Below are positions 1 through 63,625 of a DNA stretch of 64,000 nt, one piece after another. The notes below the pieces were generated by a model. That model was not told where the DNA came from. It was given only the letters and a program-made list of their open reading frames with translations, and searched no databases. This DNA is from a phage, in sequence record NC_103192.1. One strand, 5' to 3'. The stretch's first letter is position 1; the number at the start of each line of letters is the position of its first letter. A program made the translations under genes and the position numbers.

Positions 1-786
1 TTGAGAGACAACCCAGAATACCTTGCTTTCCTTGAAGGTCTGCCAGAACTGGAAAAAGCTCAGCTTCTTCATGGCAACTGGTTTGCCAAACCTGAGGGTG
101 CGAACTATTTCCAAAGATCTTTCCTTCGTGATGCCGATAGAGTGCCCCTTGGATCAGTATCTTGCAGGGCATGGGATAAGGCAGGAACAGAGAGAACTTC
201 CGGTAATAAATTTCCTGACTTTACCGCCAGTGTTAAGGTAAGTAAAGATAGCGACGGTTTTTATTACCTGTCCGGGGATTATTGTCCTGAGAACGTGGAT
301 GACGGTAGGTATTCCACAGGTCTGGAAGGCAAGTTCTGTAAAAAGGCTGGGGAACGAGATGTGATCATCAGGAAACAGGCGCAGTTTGATGGAGATGATT
401 GCATAATCGTATTCTCTGTGGACCCTGGTCAGGCAGGTAAGAGTGAGTTCTTAACCTCCTCCAGATCCTTACTCGCCGAAGGGTTCAGGGTTGAAGAAGA
501 CCCAATGCCTTCCAACAAATCTAAACTGACAAGGTTCTCACCTTTTGCCAATCTTGCACAACAAGGAATGGTGAGGATTGTAAAATCCAGTTTCCATCCT
601 GATACTCTGGAAGCATTTCTGACTGAACTTGAAAAATTCAACGGGGAAAGATCAACATTTAGCAGAAAAGACGACTGGGCAGACTGTGTAGCTTCTGCGA
701 TTAATTTTCTGGAGAAAGAGGAGGTAGCACTTCCTTGTGTGATTCCATCAATCTCATCACCTTCTATGTTCAAGCGTTTTATCTAA
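1..786 (+). CDS. terminase large subunit, C-terminal nuclease part (5' end outside window)
   Basis: ORF open from base 1; acidic Asp motifs (WDKAG..., SVDPGQAG, KDDWADCVASAI) resemble the RNaseH-like terminase nuclease domain; sits immediately upstream of the portal-sized gene. Confidence 0.6.
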   Translation: MRDNPEYLAFLEGLPELEKAQLLHGNWFAKPEGANYFQRSFLRDADRVPLGSVSCRAWDKAGTERTSGNKFPDFTASVKVSKDSDGFYYLSGDYCPENVDDGRYSTGLEGKFCKKAGERDVIIRKQAQFDGDDCIIVFSVDPGQAGKSEFLTSSRSLLAEGFRVEEDPMPSNKSKLTRFSPFANLAQQGMVRIVKSSFHPDTLEAFLTELEKFNGERSTFSRKDDWADCVASAINFLEKEEVALPCVIPSISSPSMFKRFI

Positions 787-789
787 GTG

Positions 790-818
790 TTGCCAATCTT
801 AATTAGATGTGGTAGAAT
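790..818 (+). promoter_or_regulatory. sigma70-like promoter TTGCCA-17-TGgTAGAAT
   Basis: -35 at 790-795, extended -10 at 810-818, 17-nt spacer, read directly from sequence. Confidence 0.45.
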
Positions 819-837
819 AGAGTAATCGGAGATACTA

Positions 838-866
838 GCCCTCTAACACGAGGGCTATTTTGTTAT
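838..866 (+). terminator. stem-loop AGCCCTC/GAGGGCT followed by AUUUUGUU in the portal 5' leader
   Basis: 7-bp inverted repeat 838-857 with U-rich tail; lies downstream of the predicted promoter and upstream of the portal RBS. Confidence 0.35.
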
Positions 867-888
867 ACTGTTTTGAGGGGTAAAGCTT

Positions 889-2445
889 GTGTCCAAAAAG
901 AACCGCAGGAAACACAACGCCACAGCCAAAACTGTGAATAAATCTGGGAACGCAGGCGCACCAACTCATAATGTTCGTATGAGTGAGATCGGTTCTGGCG
1001 CACTTTCCCAAATTATGGCAGAATCGCAATCTATGATGGTTGAGGAATTGCGTTGGCCTCAGCTGATTGCTACAGTGGAGACTATGAAATGTGATTCCAC
1101 AGTTGCTACTGCCTTAGATACAAAATATGTTTTCATCACGAAAGCATTCAATGATTTTAAGATCCTTTATAATGTTAAAAGTGAAGACTCTAAGAAAGCT
1201 GCAGAGCTTATAGAGTATTCTTTGCGTAATTTGGCAAACCAACAAACTCTTCGAGATATTGCAAGAAGCGCAGCTACCTTTAACGAGTATGGTTTTTCAC
1301 TGTTTGAGAAAGTATACCGCAGAGAGAAAGAAGGTAAATACGCCGGGATGCTTCTTATTGATAAAATTGCATTCCGACCTCAGGCCAGTTTGTCCAGATC
1401 AGAGCCGTTTGTCTTTGACAAGAACAGTAGAACACTGACAGGTATTTATCAGTCACCTAATGCATTTCTAAACACTCAGAATGCACGCTGGGCTGGACCT
1501 CTTGCCGCAATGCCTTCAAAAGGCTTTAATGAGCCTGAAATTTTCATCCCTGCTAAAAAGCTTATGCTCATGACCCTGTCAGGAACAGAATCTAACCCTG
1601 CAGGTGTGTCACCTATGATAGGTTGCTACAGATCTTTCCGTGAGAAAGTTCTGATTGAAAACCTTGAGGTTGTTGGCTGTTCCAAAGACCTTGGTGGTGT
1701 GCTTGAGCTGAAAATTCCTTCCAATATTTTGAACAAGGCCAGCATTGACCCGAATTCAATGGAAGGGAGAATGGTTGCAGACCTTATGCTTGACGCAGCA
1801 AACGCCCATAGTGGTGAGCAAAGTTTCTTTATACTTCCGTCTGATAGAGATAAGTCTGGTAAAGAGCTTTACTCCATGACCCTGAAGGGGGTTGACGGTA
1901 TGGGTAAGCAGTATTCCACTAAAGATTTGATTGATGCCCGTAAGAAGGCGATTCTTGACCGTTTCGGTGCTGGCTTTATTAACCTTGGTAACGATAACGT
2001 TGGATCCTTCTCTCTGTCTGAGTCAAAACAATCTATCCATGGTCATTTTGTTCAGCGTGATATAGATATTATCACTGAGGCCTTCAATAAAGATCTTATT
2101 CCACAGCTTCTGGCATTGAATGGTATCATCCTTGAAGATGATGATATGCCTAAACTGAAACCTGGTCTGATTGAAGAAGTGGACATGGAGAGCTTCTCCA
2201 AGTTTGTCCAGAGGATCGGTGCTGTAGGTTACTTGCCAAAAACTCCTGCAGTAATTAATAAGATTCTTGAAGTAGGCGGGTTTGATGAAAGATTTGACGA
2301 AGACATGGATCAGGAAGATCTGATGAAGCTCTTGGGCCAGGACATCAGTAGGGCTGGTGATGGAATGGCTGCAGGATCCACTGGTAACGGCACTTCTAAG
2401 ATGTCATCAACCAGAGATAATTCCATATCCAACATGGAAAATTAA
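889..2445 (+). CDS. portal protein
   Basis: 518 aa, GTG start with GAGGGG RBS; size and position between terminase and scaffold/capsid genes; acidic C-terminus. Confidence 0.6.
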   Translation: MSKKNRRKHNATAKTVNKSGNAGAPTHNVRMSEIGSGALSQIMAESQSMMVEELRWPQLIATVETMKCDSTVATALDTKYVFITKAFNDFKILYNVKSEDSKKAAELIEYSLRNLANQQTLRDIARSAATFNEYGFSLFEKVYRREKEGKYAGMLLIDKIAFRPQASLSRSEPFVFDKNSRTLTGIYQSPNAFLNTQNARWAGPLAAMPSKGFNEPEIFIPAKKLMLMTLSGTESNPAGVSPMIGCYRSFREKVLIENLEVVGCSKDLGGVLELKIPSNILNKASIDPNSMEGRMVADLMLDAANAHSGEQSFFILPSDRDKSGKELYSMTLKGVDGMGKQYSTKDLIDARKKAILDRFGAGFINLGNDNVGSFSLSESKQSIHGHFVQRDIDIITEAFNKDLIPQLLALNGIILEDDDMPKLKPGLIEEVDMESFSKFVQRIGAVGYLPKTPAVINKILEVGGFDERFDEDMDQEDLMKLLGQDISRAGDGMAAGSTGNGTSKMSSTRDNSISNMEN

Positions 2446-2512
2446 AAATTATCAACACAGGGGGTTGCAAAACCTCCTTTGGCGTGATAAAATAATCCAC
2501 ATGGGGAATAAG

Positions 2513-2932
2513 ATGCCACAGGAAGAAATGATTTCCTACGAAATCATCTACGAGCCTGACACTAAAGATGCTCACGGTGAGTGGATGAGTAAAGACACCA
2601 TCAAAAAGGCTAAAGATAACTGGGACGCAGCATACGCCGCAGGCCTAGTTTCTGAAAACCTTTTCCACTTGACCTCTACAGATGCTTTCACCATTGAAAA
2701 GACGTGGATTCAAGAAGAGTTTGATGTTGTAGTAATTGGTACTGAGCAGGTCATCAAGGCTGGCTCTTGGGTTGCTAAAGTTAAATATAACAATCCTGAA
2801 TTATGGGAAGCTAAGAAGGCTGGCATTGTTGGTGGACTAAGCATTCAGGCAACTGGTAATGTTGATGAAGAAACTGGAGAGATCACCAACGTAAACTTCG
2901 GGATCAGTGTTGTAGAAGAGGGCAATGAGTAA
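2513..2932 (+). CDS. XkdF-like protein (putative prohead protease or scaffold-associated)
   Basis: motif YEIIYEPDTKDAHGEWMSKDTIKKA resembles the XkdF/DUF2213 phage family; start uncertain (ATG at 2501, 2513 or 2528); stop overlaps next ATG (TAATG). Confidence 0.35.
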   Translation: MPQEEMISYEIIYEPDTKDAHGEWMSKDTIKKAKDNWDAAYAAGLVSENLFHLTSTDAFTIEKTWIQEEFDVVVIGTEQVIKAGSWVAKVKYNNPELWEAKKAGIVGGLSIQATGNVDEETGEITNVNFGISVVEEGNE

Positions 2933-3912
2933 TGTCTGAAAAAACAATCACTATTAAAGAGAAAGGGATTGCCCTGTGCCATAAGGCGCAAGGCTATAGC
3001 GCTAACAATCGGCCTGTATCTCTTTTAATGAAGAGCGATCTTAAGCCTGAGCAGTTAACAGACGATATTGTTAAGGCACTTCGCCAAGTTACTGTGGAGC
3101 TCAGTTTTGAAGAATACCTGCGTCGTTTTTTCGATATGTGGTATGACGATGCTAAGGCACTGGCTCACCTGCTTGGGTTCGAGATTGAGGAAGAAGCTTG
3201 GGCAAAAGAACACCCAGATTGGGAGTGGGCACAGGCTGATGCAGAGGCTTGTGTGCAGTGGTTAGAAGAACGTTGTGATAACGTAACCATTCACAAAGCT
3301 GCTAAAGAAGGTAAAGATTTAAGTATTGTTGACCAATACACTCTGCTGAAAACCCAACAAGTTTTTGAGCAGATGACCGCTGATCTCTTCGATGAAGAAG
3401 GGAAACTTATTAAAGCGGCACAGGAAACCACAGAAGAAGTTGTTACAGACGCTGTGGACAATGTTGATAAATCCGCAAATACCGAGGAGAATCCGGTGGA
3501 AGACGTAACCAAGTCTCAAGAGTACCTGGACCTGCTGAAACAGTTCGAAGAACTGAAGGCTACCAATGAAAAAGCTGAAGAAATCATCAAGGCTCAGGTA
3601 GAAGTTGAAAAAGCTAAAATGCTGGAAAAAGCTCAAGCGTTAAGCTTCGCTACTGAAGAAGATCACACAACTCTGGTCGAATTCATGCTGGACAAAGCTA
3701 ATGCTTCTGTTGTTGCATTGCTGGAAAAAGCCCAAGCTCGTATTGCTGAACTGGAAGCTGAAGTTGAAAAAGCTAAAGATGAGTTCGCAACTACCGAGCA
3801 AGGCAAAGATGGTGATGTCGTAGTAGATGACATTGCTAAATCTGCTGAAGATATTATTGCTGAAAACGTCGCTAAAGCTCTGGCTCGTGCACGTAAAGAA
3901 TCTAATAAATAA
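2932..3912 (+). CDS. scaffolding protein
   Basis: 326 aa, highly acidic, long Glu/Lys/Ala coiled-coil stretches (AEEIIKAQVEVEKAKMLEKAQ...), located between portal and capsid genes. Confidence 0.55.
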   Translation: MSEKTITIKEKGIALCHKAQGYSANNRPVSLLMKSDLKPEQLTDDIVKALRQVTVELSFEEYLRRFFDMWYDDAKALAHLLGFEIEEEAWAKEHPDWEWAQADAEACVQWLEERCDNVTIHKAAKEGKDLSIVDQYTLLKTQQVFEQMTADLFDEEGKLIKAAQETTEEVVTDAVDNVDKSANTEENPVEDVTKSQEYLDLLKQFEELKATNEKAEEIIKAQVEVEKAKMLEKAQALSFATEEDHTTLVEFMLDKANASVVALLEKAQARIAELEAEVEKAKDEFATTEQGKDGDVVVDDIAKSAEDIIAENVAKALARARKESNK

Positions 3913-3933
3913 TCTGCTTAATAGGGGAAAATA

Positions 3934-4308
3934 ATGATCACCACTCAATATTCTGATATCGTGCTCGGCAAAGTAGATGCAAGCGATGCAGGTTTCAACT
4001 TTAAAGAGATTGAAATTACCCTTACTGCTGATCACGTTGCTGGCGCAGTAGTTACCAAAACTGGCACTCTGGCTAATCAAGATGGCACAGATACCTTTGG
4101 TGTACTGGTTGACCGCGCTCTTCTGCCTGACGATTCTGGTAAAGTTAATCTGGCAGAGCCTCTGAAAGTTGGCGAGAAGTATAAACTGGTTGTTGCTGTT
4201 CGTGGCGTTACTTTCGCTAAAAAACATCTTAAAGTGGCTGGCGGCACGGCTGCACCTGCTGCAGTTCTGGAAGCTCTCGAAGCCAAAGGCAACAAAGTTC
4301 AGGAATAA
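3934..4308 (+). CDS. head decoration-like protein
   Basis: 124 aa, Gly/Ala/Val-rich small protein immediately upstream of the major capsid gene, lambda gpD-like position. Confidence 0.4.
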   Translation: MITTQYSDIVLGKVDASDAGFNFKEIEITLTADHVAGAVVTKTGTLANQDGTDTFGVLVDRALLPDDSGKVNLAEPLKVGEKYKLVVAVRGVTFAKKHLKVAGGTAAPAAVLEALEAKGNKVQE

Positions 4309-4354
4309 TCCTAGATCTTTGGGAAACAAATTTTAAAGTTATTTGGAGAAAATA

Positions 4355-5356
4355 ATGCGTAAAGATGATTTTGGTATTGTTGATTTAGGTGCTACTCTTG
4401 AACTGGTTCCGCGCCAATATCGCCTGATCACTGGTATGGATCTGTTTGAAACCCATCTCGGCACCTCAACAATCGCACAGATCGAACGTGTTGATGAAGT
4501 GGTTGGTGATATCGCCGCTCGCCGTCGTGGTGGTGAACGTAACTACGTTGATAGTGAACGTGCACAGATCAAAAACCTGAACATCCCGTTCTTCCCGCTG
4601 GATAAGGGCATTACTGCTGCGGACGTTCAGAACTTTCGTCGCTACTTCACCCCAGATGCACCGAAAACTGTGCAAGACGTGGTTACTCGTGTAGTTCGTC
4701 GTATTCGTCTGAGCCACGAAACCCTGCGTGAAAAAGCTCTTTTTTCTGCAATTCTGGGTAAATCCTATGCACCTGGTGACAAAACTTGCCAGTATGACTA
4801 TTACAAACTGTGGGGCGTTTCCCAGAAATCTATCGAAATCGATCCTAAAAATGCAGCACAGGACCCGATGGAAGTAATCGAAGATGCACGTCTGCACATT
4901 GCTCTGCAGGCTGGCGACAACGCTGGTGCTTACAACATCATCGCGCTGTGCTCTCCGAAATTCTTCTCTGCACTGGTTCATCATCCGCTGGTAGAGCTGG
5001 CTTACACCTACTACAGCTCTTCTCAGGAACCGCTGCGTCGTCGTCTGGGTGCAGGTGGCGAACAGAGCATTTACCGTGTGTTCGAACACAAAGGCATGAC
5101 CTTCATCGAAGACATCTCTGGTAACATTCCGGACGGTGAGGCTCGCCTGATGCCTATGGGTATCGATCAGATGTTCCAGCTGCACTTTGCTCCAGCTGAC
5201 ACTGTGGAAGATGCAAATACCCCAGCACAAGAACTGTATATGTGGTATAAACACTCTGCCTACCTGAGAGAACAGAAAATCGAATCTGAAACCTCTATGC
5301 TGGCAGTTAACACCCGTCCAGAGCTGGTTGTTAAAGCAACTCTGAAAAGTGAATAA
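4355..5356 (+). CDS. major capsid protein
   Basis: about 333 aa, ATG 4355 with GGAGA RBS (ORF track start 4343 is TTG); strongly biased codon usage; followed by the strongest intrinsic terminator in the window. Confidence 0.7.
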   Translation: MRKDDFGIVDLGATLELVPRQYRLITGMDLFETHLGTSTIAQIERVDEVVGDIAARRRGGERNYVDSERAQIKNLNIPFFPLDKGITAADVQNFRRYFTPDAPKTVQDVVTRVVRRIRLSHETLREKALFSAILGKSYAPGDKTCQYDYYKLWGVSQKSIEIDPKNAAQDPMEVIEDARLHIALQAGDNAGAYNIIALCSPKFFSALVHHPLVELAYTYYSSSQEPLRRRLGAGGEQSIYRVFEHKGMTFIEDISGNIPDGEARLMPMGIDQMFQLHFAPADTVEDANTPAQELYMWYKHSAYLREQKIESETSMLAVNTRPELVVKATLKSE

Positions 5357-5380
5357 TCACTACGGTGATTCATCCCATAT

Positions 5381-6966: not shown

Positions 6967-6972
6967 AAATTG

Positions 6973-10407: not shown

Positions 10408-10423
10408 GAGCACACCATAGCAT

Positions 10424-12135: not shown

Positions 12136-12136
12136 A

Positions 12137-12165
12137 TTGACAATGCACTATAATCATGGTAAAAT
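12137..12165 (+). promoter_or_regulatory. promoter TTGACA-17-TGgTAAAAT
   Basis: consensus -35 at 12137-12142, extended -10 at 12157-12165. Confidence 0.6.
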
Positions 12166-12208
12166 ACACAAATATGGTGCACAACATGACTAATAAGGAT
12201 GCTATAAA

Positions 12209-39517: not shown

Positions 39518-41263
39518 ATGGCGCAAGACATGACAAGCTTCGAGCAGGCGGTAGATCAAGTAATTGTTGATTCTGAACGTTTGCACTTGATTGTCAACGG
39601 TAACGCTGTGGATGAAGTTGTCGTAGAGGATGGGACCACTATCCCTACGGTACGAAAAGCCATGCTTGACACCCTTTATTTTAAAACGCCGCCGATCCCT
39701 TGGGCGTATGGTGCATCCACAACAGTTTTTAACCAGTTGTATGAGTTTAAAGGAGATACGGGCACTCAGTGGTGGTACGCCCCAGCAGCATCAAAATCTA
39801 ACCCAGTTAGGATGCCAGCAGATCCTTCAGAATCTCCGAACTGGAGATTATATACCGATTCTGCAGTAATGGCAAAATACTACGCAAAACTTAACAGTCC
39901 AAGGTTCGAAGGTGACCCGAGAGTACCTACACCTCCAATGGACGATAAGTCCGAGTCTATAGCAAACACAGAGTTTGTTGTTGACTATGTGGATAGTATA
40001 TTCAAAGCCATGGAGGGGATGAAAGTAACTGTAGGGTCTTTGGTGGTAAAAGGTCTTACAGAACTTGCTAACACCATAGTTGGTGGCACCCTTACCTTGC
40101 ACGGGCCTGTTAATGGAGCGGATTCTACTGCACGCTTCAGGAACCTAATCCTTACTGCAAATACTTCTACATTGACTTTTGCGTGGAGCGATCCTAAGCA
40201 TGCAGACTGGAGAAGCACAGAGCTGCAACCTCATGAAGTATCCACCCACAGAGTTATAGCTGACACTATAACTTCTGGGAAACCAGTGGCTAATAACAAC
40301 GATGTGCATTTTGATGGTCTAGGTAATAACTTTTTTGACTACGTGTACATTCGTGGTAATGCCATGAAGGCAGCCACCGAACCGACATTGCAGGTTGATG
40401 GGACCACTAGGGTTAAGAACCTTGAGGTGACAGGCACCGTTACAGGGATAACCTACTCTGTAGATGGCACCATGATCTACCCTAGCTATATTGAAAGCAC
40501 GGGAGATGCACTGATCAATGGAGATTTAGAGGTTGGCGGGTCTGTAGTCATTCGTGGCACAGCATCTGTCCAGAACATATCTTTAAATACTCTGAGGGTG
40601 AATGAGCGTGCCACTTTTGAAGGAGAGGGGCTTACAGCCAACAAAGGTGTAATTACCGAGCTGACAACCACCACTCTAACTGCAACAACTGCAAACTCTG
40701 AAAACTGCAACGTTACCAGAAACTTGCAGGTAAATGGAGATGTTAGTTTAAACACAGCAGGGACGGGCACTACCCACCTTCACAACCTTGAAATATCAGG
40801 TACAGTGACTGGGTGGCTGCCAGACTTCTCTAATGTCAACTTTGTCTGTAATGGCATTAACTCCAGTGGCAAGATAACCACCTCTCAAGAAATTGAAGCT
40901 GGTAAAACTATTACTGCCCCTGCTTTCCATGCAGGGAAGGTGGAGTTTGACTTAGAGGAGGCTGACGCATCTAGTGGGACATGGACACCTAACGGGCAGG
41001 CCAATATGTATGTTGTCCACGCGAAAGGGGATTTTACAATAGGGCAATGGCCTGGAACATCGGCTGAAGATAAACCTTACCCGTTCACTGCAATCATCTA
41101 TGTCATTCAGGATGCTGTAGGCCACAACGTGACCTTACACGATAAATATGCCATACTGTCGGCTACTCCTGTTATTAACAACAAAGCCAACAGTGTCACC
41201 TTGCTACAATTGACATATTGTGGTGTTGGTGATATTGTGGATGTGGTTATTGCACAACGTTAA
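39518..41263 (+). CDS. tail fibre protein with beta-helical repeats
   Basis: 581 aa; repeated NLEVTGTVTG / NLEISGTVTG type motifs typical of fibre shafts. Confidence 0.5.
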   Translation: MAQDMTSFEQAVDQVIVDSERLHLIVNGNAVDEVVVEDGTTIPTVRKAMLDTLYFKTPPIPWAYGASTTVFNQLYEFKGDTGTQWWYAPAASKSNPVRMPADPSESPNWRLYTDSAVMAKYYAKLNSPRFEGDPRVPTPPMDDKSESIANTEFVVDYVDSIFKAMEGMKVTVGSLVVKGLTELANTIVGGTLTLHGPVNGADSTARFRNLILTANTSTLTFAWSDPKHADWRSTELQPHEVSTHRVIADTITSGKPVANNNDVHFDGLGNNFFDYVYIRGNAMKAATEPTLQVDGTTRVKNLEVTGTVTGITYSVDGTMIYPSYIESTGDALINGDLEVGGSVVIRGTASVQNISLNTLRVNERATFEGEGLTANKGVITELTTTTLTATTANSENCNVTRNLQVNGDVSLNTAGTGTTHLHNLEISGTVTGWLPDFSNVNFVCNGINSSGKITTSQEIEAGKTITAPAFHAGKVEFDLEEADASSGTWTPNGQANMYVVHAKGDFTIGQWPGTSAEDKPYPFTAIIYVIQDAVGHNVTLHDKYAILSATPVINNKANSVTLLQLTYCGVGDIVDVVIAQR

Positions 41264-41272
41264 TATATCTGA

Positions 41273-41297
41273 CCGCTCCTGACGGGGCGGTTTTCTT
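41273..41297 (+). terminator. hairpin CCGCTCC-TGAC-GGGGCGG + TTTTCTT
   Basis: 7-bp stem (one G-U) read from sequence. Confidence 0.55.
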
Positions 41298-57730: not shown

Positions 57731-58111
57731 ATGGCTAAAGTAGGTAAGCGGGGAAACTACCTGGTGGTATTGACCGAGGAGCCGGAGAAGGAGTACGAAT
57801 GCAGCTCCACTTGCGTGATCGATATCCGAGAAAAAGATGTAGATGAAATCTGGTTTAAAATATTGGACGCTTGCGATAGCAGTGATTATTTCTTCATCTA
57901 TGTCAACGATAAGGCTGGGTTCTTCCATGACGACGGAGAGTTGCCGTATGAAATCTATGAACTTGTAGAGGCTTGCCATCGTGGAGATGCGGAGTTATTT
58001 GGCTTACGGCTGAAAAGCGGTAAATTCTTCTACCAAGACGAGTGCATGAATCTTCACAACTTCGTAGAGGGAACTTGCAACGATGGAGAGATTTTGGCAC
58101 ACTACGACTAA
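57731..58111 (+). CDS. hypothetical Cys-containing acidic protein
   Basis: 126 aa, AGGGGG RBS. Confidence 0.4.
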   Translation: MAKVGKRGNYLVVLTEEPEKEYECSSTCVIDIREKDVDEIWFKILDACDSSDYFFIYVNDKAGFFHDDGELPYEIYELVEACHRGDAELFGLRLKSGKFFYQDECMNLHNFVEGTCNDGEILAHYD

Positions 58112-63564: not shown

Positions 63565-63625
63565 TAAGATGTGAGTATAAAGGGGAGGCACTCCTCCCCA
63601 CAAAAACTAAGGAGAGCACCAAACG

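Follow-up and report, generated by a model that had tools for sequence, protein, structure and literature searches.

Promoter and hairpin in the terminase-portal gap

The stretch of phage DNA analyzed here (sequence record NC_103192.1, 64,000 nucleotides, hereafter the window) carries a 102-nt gap between the genes for the terminase large subunit and the portal protein, in which a predicted promoter stands directly upstream of a terminator-like hairpin. Over its first 3 kb, the window matched 119 phage records at 95-99% identity, all from Vequintavirus, a genus of rV5-like E. coli myoviruses (examples are HeinrichReichert, FFH2, Murica, and Gotham). The gap (787-888) follows the 3' part of the terminase large subunit gene (1..786, plus strand, stop codon TAA at 784-786; Pfam Terminase_6C, PHROG 979), which bears the same label in the annotations of HeinrichReichert, Murica, and rV5 and is the last gene of the upstream i-spanin/o-spanin/terminase unit. 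It ends at the GTG start codon of a Mu-type portal gene (889..2445, plus strand; Pfam Portal_Mu, PHROG 113), also annotated as portal in HeinrichReichert. The gene order in the latter genome is i-spanin, o-spanin, terminase (split by a homing endonuclease gene), the gap, portal, protease, scaffold, decoration protein, and major capsid protein. The gap itself reads GTG-TTGCCA-ATCTTAATTAGATGTGG-TAGAAT-AGAGTAATCGGAGATAC-TAGCCCTC-TAACAC-GAGGGCTA-TTTTGTTATACTGTTTT-GAGGGG-TAAAGCTT, followed by the portal GTG. The pair of elements within it is real, conserved, and clade-specific; it is built of ordinary parts, and just their order is unusual.

The promoter (plus strand) comprises the -35 hexamer TTGCCA (790-795, matching TTGACA in five of six positions), a 17-nt spacer (796-812) that ends in the extended -10 dinucleotide TG (810-811), and the -10 hexamer TAGAAT (813-818, 5/6 to TATAAT, the A of position 2 and the T of position 6 being present). 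Scoring 10/12 plus TG, it was the best site found by the promoter scan in 1-5000, and the extended -10 promoter that the first-pass annotation had placed at 790-818 was thereby borne out. A start site at ~825 is predicted from the usual distance of 7 +/- 1 nt from the -10 hexamer; it would lie at ~824-826, within the discriminator and initially transcribed region (819..835), the variable part of the block.

The hairpin TAGCCCTC-TAACAC-GAGGGCTA (836-857, plus strand) has 8 bp, five of them G-C pairs, and a 6-nt loop; its conserved stem core is AGCCCTC/GAGGGCT (837-843 and 850-856). Together with the T-tract TTTTGTTAT (858-866), it makes up a predicted intrinsic terminator with a tail score of 4.05, the tail evaluated by the scanner being TTTTGTTATA. 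The hairpin energy is -13.4 kcal/mol, the 42-nt RNA 825-866 folded with z = -3.5 relative to shuffled sequences, and the d-score of hairpin and tail (+15.6) is mid-range among the 11 late terminators, the one after the capsid gene reaching +65. The stem begins 17 nt after the end of the -10 hexamer and ~11 nt after the predicted start, and the earlier remark that a transcript initiated here would meet the hairpin almost at once described a juxtaposition that is both real and conserved. That annotation had also given the stem 7 bp; the hairpin is present before the portal ribosome binding site (RBS), with 8 bp at 836-857, and the span of 838-866 proposed for it took in the T-tract.

The mean pair probability of the stem was 0.87-0.98 for all RNA 5' ends tested between 400 and 828, including 819-828. 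The hairpin forms from any of these ends and should therefore act on transcripts started upstream as well as on those started locally. Folding left the portal RBS GAGGGG (875-880, plus strand) unpaired when the hairpin was formed. In the covariation analysis, 96.9% of cells were paired, 6/8 pairs were invariant, and one A-U pair changed to G.U; no two-sided change was seen. Five loops were found (TAACAC, TGACAC, TGAC, TGAT, and TTCG, of 4 or 6 nt), with the energy held at -13.4 to -16.4 kcal/mol, which fits an RNA hairpin better than a DNA-binding site of fixed spacing. A palindrome bound by a protein at the DNA level is accordingly disfavored, its half-sites being 4 or 6 nt apart depending on the allele. 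A terminator acting on the minus strand was rejected as well, since GTATCTCC, the sequence after the reverse-complement hairpin, lacks a T-tract; the minus-strand open reading frames (ORFs) 835-1029 and 863-1003 are spurious since they lie within the portal gene.

Judged by its sequence, the hairpin has every feature of an ordinary intrinsic terminator of middling strength. The first-pass annotation had preferred an attenuator, a stabilizing stem-loop, or a processing site to a simple terminator; this preference was not supported, as several annotators have called the hairpin a terminator and its position also ends the upstream spanin-terminase unit.

Two further observations concern neighboring or similar sequences. 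The terminase gene of these phages is interrupted (1-786 of the window; L004 1-2400; L027 683-3113): as annotated, in rV5 it consists of three joined pieces with an HNH homing endonuclease gene (ORF65) inside, in HeinrichReichert of two pieces with a homing endonuclease gene, and in Gotham and HdK5 of separate fragments, the window beginning within the last exon. A further hairpin, GGGGAGG-CACT-CCTCCCC, lies at 63582-63599, just 5' of a plus-strand methyltransferase-like gene (start 63627), and its T-rich tail is found on the minus strand only, though the neighboring genes are on the plus strand.

A class of structural-gene promoters and the order of elements in the late region

The loose thresholds of the scanner gave no enrichment in 1-5000, where 10 promoters were called against 7.3 expected and 5 terminators against 4.4. 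Sites scoring at least 10/12 with TG, by comparison, numbered 14 in the window versus 1.2 +/- 1.1 in 200 Markov-1 simulations, and a promoter with a terminator-like hairpin no more than 40 nt downstream occurred in none of 200 simulated 64-kb sequences (0/200). The motif TGGTARAATA (at most 1 mismatch) was present 26 times in the window against 9.4 expected, 21 of the copies being on the late strand. Positions 810-819 of the portal leader, TGGTAGAATA, fit the TggTAaAAtA motif reported upstream of the late genes of rV5.

The next promoter of the same kind, TTGCAA-17-TGaTAAAATA (2465-2494, plus strand), precedes the gene for an XkdF-type prohead protease (2513-2932, assigned in a domain/PHROG search of the window proteins). 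The portal-protease gap contains TTGCAA-17-TG(a/t/c)TAAAATA in Vequintavirus, Mydovirus, Seunavirus, and Certrevirus, and TTGCAT-17-TGgTAGAATAG in the uncultured contig L018 described below. Because the same element fills this gap in four genera and in L018, and because the motif is enriched, the class can be regarded as deeply conserved. By its sequence, the portal-leader promoter is a member of this structural-gene class (TTGCnA-17-TGnTA(A/G)AATA), which resembles host sigma-70 extended -10 promoters. The authors of the rV5 genome reported no T4-like late-transcription factors, just the Srd-like gp11 (PMC3606486). In the window, a weak hairpin of the portal-protease gap (2446-2512), GGGGG-TTGCAAAA-CCTCC, has the -35 of this promoter in its loop.

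Along the late region of the window, terminator-then-promoter gaps recur at 10408, 15334, 26250, 31757, and 38100, and weakly at 2446. Gaps with a terminator only start at 5357, 12943, 22398, 41264, and 46946, those with a promoter only at 6967 and 12136. The gap 787-888 alone among the late-region gaps has the promoter upstream of the terminator, and it is the single clear case of this order among ~45 terminator-like hairpins in ~135 kb, made up of the window and the remainder of HeinrichReichert. A weak second candidate spans 41210-41292: the site TTGACA-17-TGaTATTGT (41210-41238), within the 3' end of the ORF 39518-41263, lies 32 nt upstream of the terminator 41271-41292 (rV5 t028), and it is absent from the promoter list of rV5 (PMC3606486). 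The rV5 genome itself has a second pair (132395-132472; L056 601-673, minus strand), in which P231 (TTGACA-17-TACAAT), located in the last codons of ORF232, is followed ~21 nt on by the strong terminator t232 (-22.3 kcal/mol) and then by the RBS of ORF231, again in promoter-then-terminator order. The scan of the window-type genome (HeinrichReichert) did not detect the P231-t232 pair.

One of the promoter-only gaps, 12136-12208, has an architecture of its own. Its near-consensus promoter TTGACA-17-TGGTAAAAT (12137-12165) is flanked by a 9-bp inverted repeat, TGCACTATA...TATGGTGCA (~12144-12181), that is perfect in rV5 (GCACCATA/TATGGTGC) and covers the -10 and the predicted start. This repeat could be an operator or a 5' hairpin.

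Both elements of the portal leader had been predicted before. Table S4 of the rV5 study lists the homologous promoter P064 (57980..58016, minus strand) as a "putative late promoter found by MEME" (Kropinski et al. 2013, PMC3606486), one of eight rV5 "putative late promoters" sharing TggTAaAAtA, and the homologous terminator t064ABC (57949..57975, -11.5 kcal/mol) as one of 20 (PMC3606486). In the rV5 allele, TACAAT replaces the TAGAAT of the window, and a 4-nt loop, TGAC, replaces its TAACAC. The record of phage Gotham (MT682716) has two features whose positions coincide exactly with the two elements, a promoter called by PhagePromoter and a terminator called by ARNold; in Murica, HdK5, and the GenBank record of rV5, a terminator is annotated here and no promoter. 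The rV5 and Gotham features thus mark the same site as separate in silico predictions, in which the order of the elements, their clade-specific origin, and their conservation are not discussed. The pairing, the reversed order, the clade restriction, the conservation in a sister lineage, and the assignment of the promoter to a subfamily-wide class are new here.

Distribution and conservation of the block

In Mydovirus, Seunavirus, and Certrevirus (57-70% portal identity), the terminase stop codon is followed by the portal RBS and GTG within ~15-25 nt, and the same direct junction was found in more than 20 further viral or metagenomic relatives (39-64% portal identity). Neither a promoter nor a hairpin was present at the terminase-portal junction of those three genera and >20 further relatives, which brings the more distant relatives with a direct junction to more than 25. 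The GAGGGG of the window is the ancestral RBS, which in the other genera comes directly after the terminase stop. Among the relatives compared, the ~85-nt block is restricted to Vequintavirus and one uncultured sister lineage. It occurs once per genome in 118 Vequintavirus records, in two main haplotypes. GenBank phages, IMG/VR, and the metagenome scan yielded no relative in which a gene separates promoter from hairpin or in which one of the elements stands alone.

The sister lineage is represented by six metagenomic or viral contigs (L018, L019, and L032-L035; 86-141 kb). The N-terminal part of their portal is 77-78% identical to that of Vequintavirus, and their nucleotide identity to GenBank phages does not exceed 73.6%. 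They probably constitute an undescribed genus-level sister group of the rV5-like phages. Their junction reads TTGCCA-ATCTCTGTTGAATGTGT-TACAAT-AGTCTATAGAGCACAATATA-AGCCCTC-TTCG-GAGGGCT-ATTTCTTTTGTCT...GAGGG...GTG. Between the window and L018, the -35 is identical in 6/6 positions, the -10 in 5/6, and the stem in 14/14; the spacer retains its length and the TG with 11/17 identical bases. Between the -10 and the stem, 7/20 positions are identical, in the loop 1/6, and in the tail 10/18, the tail being still T-rich, with ATTTCTTTTGT in L018. When the functional positions, fixed beforehand, were compared with the rest, 31/32 were identical versus 34/72 of the others (Fisher p = 2e-7), and against the coding baseline of 73.6% the identity of the functional positions gave p = 7e-4. 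The promoter-hairpin pair is therefore not a product of chance.

The variation within the genus is distributed in a similar way. The -35 hexamer is invariant in all Vequintavirus variants seen and in the six contigs of the sister lineage; the -10 is TACAAT in rV5 and L018, and the alleles differ solely at the non-critical position 3. The remaining changes are confined to the spacer of L014, to the 17 nt that lead up to the stem (3-4 polymorphic sites in 819-835), to the loop, and to one stem pair (A-U to G.U, seen in L015). In the metagenome variant L014 (~1401-1417, corresponding to 796-812 of the window), two symmetric spacer changes convert the palindrome TAATTA into TGATCA and create a GATC (Dam) site, which may be a coincidence.

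The database comparison also returned 18-24 GenBank records under the name "Campylobacter phage" (MG0656xx; host given as C. jejuni; most without annotation) that are ~98% identical to E. coli rV5-like phages in this region, which suggests that they are contaminating coliphages or mislabelled entries.

Possible roles of the promoter-then-terminator order

We favor, with a probability of about one half, the view that the hairpin is a leaky, unregulated terminator close to its promoter and, at the same time, the end of the spanin-terminase unit. An extended -10 promoter of sigma-70 type, belonging to the Vequintavirinae structural-gene class, would fire in the 102-nt spacer, and a mid-strength intrinsic terminator, located ~11 nt past the predicted start, would end the i-spanin/o-spanin/terminase unit. 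Because this terminator lies downstream of the promoter, it would also stop a fixed fraction of the local transcripts and release a short RNA of ~35-40 nt, the remaining transcripts reading through to portal. The net effect would be a constitutive, unregulated damping of portal transcription, with portal kept low before the promoter at 2465-2494 raises the expression of protease, scaffold, and capsid. We infer the activity of the promoter, its start site, the efficiency of termination, and this stoichiometric rationale from the layout of the elements.

Units of a comparable kind have been mapped in other virulent phages. In six virulent Pseudomonas phages, ONT-cappable-seq identified 42 terminators in 5' untranslated regions (5'UTRs), just past promoters (Putzeys et al. 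2024, PMC10914365); most of them yield either a short RNA or the full-length mRNA, and at T102 of phiKZ more than 90% of transcripts stop prematurely (PMC10914365). As in these units, the terminator of the portal leader is positioned between the start site and the first gene, here by sequence alone (-10 at 813-818, hairpin at 836-857, gene at 889). The differences are that the Pseudomonas units are mapped and their RNAs are ~70-250 nt long, whereas here the predicted RNA is ~35-40 nt and the terminator is shared with the upstream gene. The block fits best as another 5'UTR premature-termination unit made of standard parts. The PeSL (promoter-early stem-loop) cassettes of T4-type phages resemble it in combining a strong sigma-70-like promoter with a GC-rich stem-loop terminator in intergenic positions of large virulent coliphages. 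In a PeSL, however, the stem-loop comes first, followed by an AT-rich region and then the promoter (Arbiol et al. 2010, PMC2839356), and PeSLs are dispersed through the genome in many near-identical copies, which border the ORFans of early hyperplastic regions and mediate recombination (PMC2839356; Comeau et al. 2014, PMC4122927), whereas the block of the window is promoter-first, single-copy, and placed between core late genes. A dispersed cassette of the PeSL type was rejected on these grounds: the block is single-copy per genome (118 records), the window holds no second copy of the hairpin, and the PeSL order is opposite.

Several points weigh against a leaky, unregulated terminator. A strong promoter attenuated at once looks wasteful, and five or six late gaps have the reverse order, which leaves room for a specific function. 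A polymerase fresh from the promoter, with sigma and without NusA, might terminate differently from one arriving from upstream. The stem structure, which draws on conservation, loop variability, and energy, is supported but not proven, because no two-sided covariation was seen. A literature search found no transcriptome or start-site map of any rV5-like phage, nor Term-seq or Northern data on RNA ends at the T-tract. The contrast with the other gaps may also be smaller than it seems: in vitro, a terminated polymerase slides in both directions and restarts at a nearby promoter, even an upstream one (PMC6978380), and if this holds in vivo, the two orders of elements may be closer to equivalent than they look.

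As to the origin of the block, it is conceivable, though unlikely, that a gene once inserted here, for example a moron or a free-standing homing endonuclease gene, brought its own promoter and terminator and left them side by side as a scar when its ORF was deleted. The block is one clade-specific insertion at a point where the terminase stop and the portal RBS abut in the other relatives, which is consistent with such a history, as are the status of the terminase gene as a hot spot for homing endonuclease insertions and the presence of GGAG at 828-831, 9 nt after the -10, where promoters of the same class have the RBS of their gene. However, no ORF lies between the elements in 118 GenBank genomes, 8 viral contigs, and 13 metagenome loci, and both elements are under purifying selection in two lineages, so whatever its origin the block is now maintained.

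The hairpin might instead be a plain terminase terminator, next to a promoter-like site that is weak, inactive, or irrelevant, with portal transcribed by upstream read-through alone. Other genera co-transcribe terminase and portal without a promoter between them, so that a promoter of its own is not intrinsically needed by the portal gene, and Murica, HdK5, and the rV5 GenBank record mark a terminator alone. This explanation seems unlikely in view of the sister lineage, which kept the -35 (6/6), the TG, the -10 (5/6), and the exact 17-nt spacing while 6/17 spacer bases and 13/20 downstream positions changed. Moreover, the promoter class of which this site is a member is conserved throughout the subfamily, and without a restart promoter, portal and the head genes up to 2465 would starve. 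A second promoter past the hairpin (TGTTATACT, 861-869, overlapping the T-tract), with which the gap would regain the common terminator-then-promoter order, was considered and rejected, since it is not conserved in L018 (TGTCTAACT) and its start would fall in the RBS.

A regulated switch of the lambda PR'-tR' kind, in which the promoter would fire constitutively and its transcripts would stop after ~40 nt until a phage factor or a modified polymerase reads through and so times the head genes, we hold to be quite unlikely. The likeness to PR'-qut-tR' consists of a strong promoter heading late or morphogenesis genes, a promoter-proximal intrinsic terminator, and a short RNA, and a strong promoter with an immediate terminator ahead of morphogenesis genes is a hallmark of Q-type late control. 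In lambda, tR' lies at +194, and read-through needs Q, loaded at a sigma-dependent pause. The terminator of the window would lie at ~+12 to +40, and no Q-like factor is known. A -10-like hexamer before the stem, at ~+7 to +12, reads GATACT in the window and GATAAT in L014; polymerase could pause there in a sigma-dependent manner, but the sequence of the hexamer is not conserved in L018, where only loose AT-rich matches occur. The rV5 pair of P231 and the strong t232 would suit a switch too, yet the scan of the window-type genome did not find it. Components of the Q, N, or put type are not known, and none turned up, although no proteome scan was made, and the rV5 paper reports no late-transcription factors (PMC3606486). 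Terminator-then-promoter restart modules recur along the late region and would be needless under processive antitermination; these downstream restart promoters argue against lambda-type processive antitermination in the phage of the window.

Equally doubtful is the broader idea that the promoter-then-terminator order is itself the function, a control device acquired once by the rV5-like ancestor. Late read-through would be permitted by a phage factor or by an altered RNA polymerase, making the device a non-lambdoid counterpart of Q-type control. Alternatively, polymerase fresh from the promoter would ignore the terminator and polymerase from upstream would obey it, so that the head operon would be insulated and still keep its own promoter.

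Regulated attenuation in the classical sense found no basis: folding of RNAs starting at 400-828 revealed no alternative or antiterminator structure using upstream RNA, no leader ORF with an RBS exists in 825-888, and an Rfam scan of 500-1300 returned sub-threshold hits only (Phe_leader, 24 bits against a gathering score of 55). Of two candidate leader peptides, ATG-TGG-TAG (807-815) precedes the predicted start and the 7-codon TTG frame 860-883 has no RBS. With no competing fold, leader ORF, or Rfam family, the attenuator of the first-pass annotation survives in a weak sense, as a constitutive leaky terminator close to a promoter.

The other suggestions made there, a 5' stem-loop protecting the portal mRNA or a processing site defining mRNA ends, would give the hairpin a mainly post-transcriptional role. 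The stem is indeed near the 5' end of local transcripts, the RBS stays unpaired, and, as terminator hairpins generally do, it also guards the upstream mRNA, that of terminase, at its 3' end. Nevertheless, classical 5'-end protection needs a stem within a few nt of the 5' end, and ~11 unpaired nt would precede this one in both lineages (the -10 and GCCCTC being 19 and 21 nt apart). The T-rich tail, conserved in character, is not needed by a stabilizer, RNase III needs a much longer stem than 8 bp, and no Rfam family matched. The stabilizing role is thus disfavored, the processing site is without support, and the post-transcriptional explanation as a whole appears very unlikely.

That the functional product is the short terminated RNA of ~35-40 nt, acting as a small regulatory RNA, is the most improbable of the explanations considered: the layout (an unpaired 5' segment followed by a terminator hairpin with its U tail) resembles that of a minimal small RNA, and 5'UTR-derived premature-termination RNAs are abundant in other virulent phages, including a Northern-confirmed 71-nt RNA of phiKZ (PMC10914365), but the would-be seed (825-835) lies in the least conserved part, with 7/20 positions identical to L018 and polymorphism within the genus, no target is known, and the RNA would be unusually short.

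For annotators of these genomes, the hairpin is not to be taken as a hard operon boundary, and engineers of these therapeutic and typing phages should keep the block intact. The block records a dated evolutionary event, one insertion common to Vequintavirus and one uncultured sister lineage, and it helps to define the structural-gene promoter class of the Vequintavirinae. No long-standing question is opened by it unless the read-through is regulated. If the leaky terminator is the correct explanation, the portal leader would be a natural example of a promoter and the terminator of the preceding gene sharing ~70 nt in the "wrong" order, and of a compact phage genome that tunes the dose of its low-copy portal protein via constitutive premature termination.

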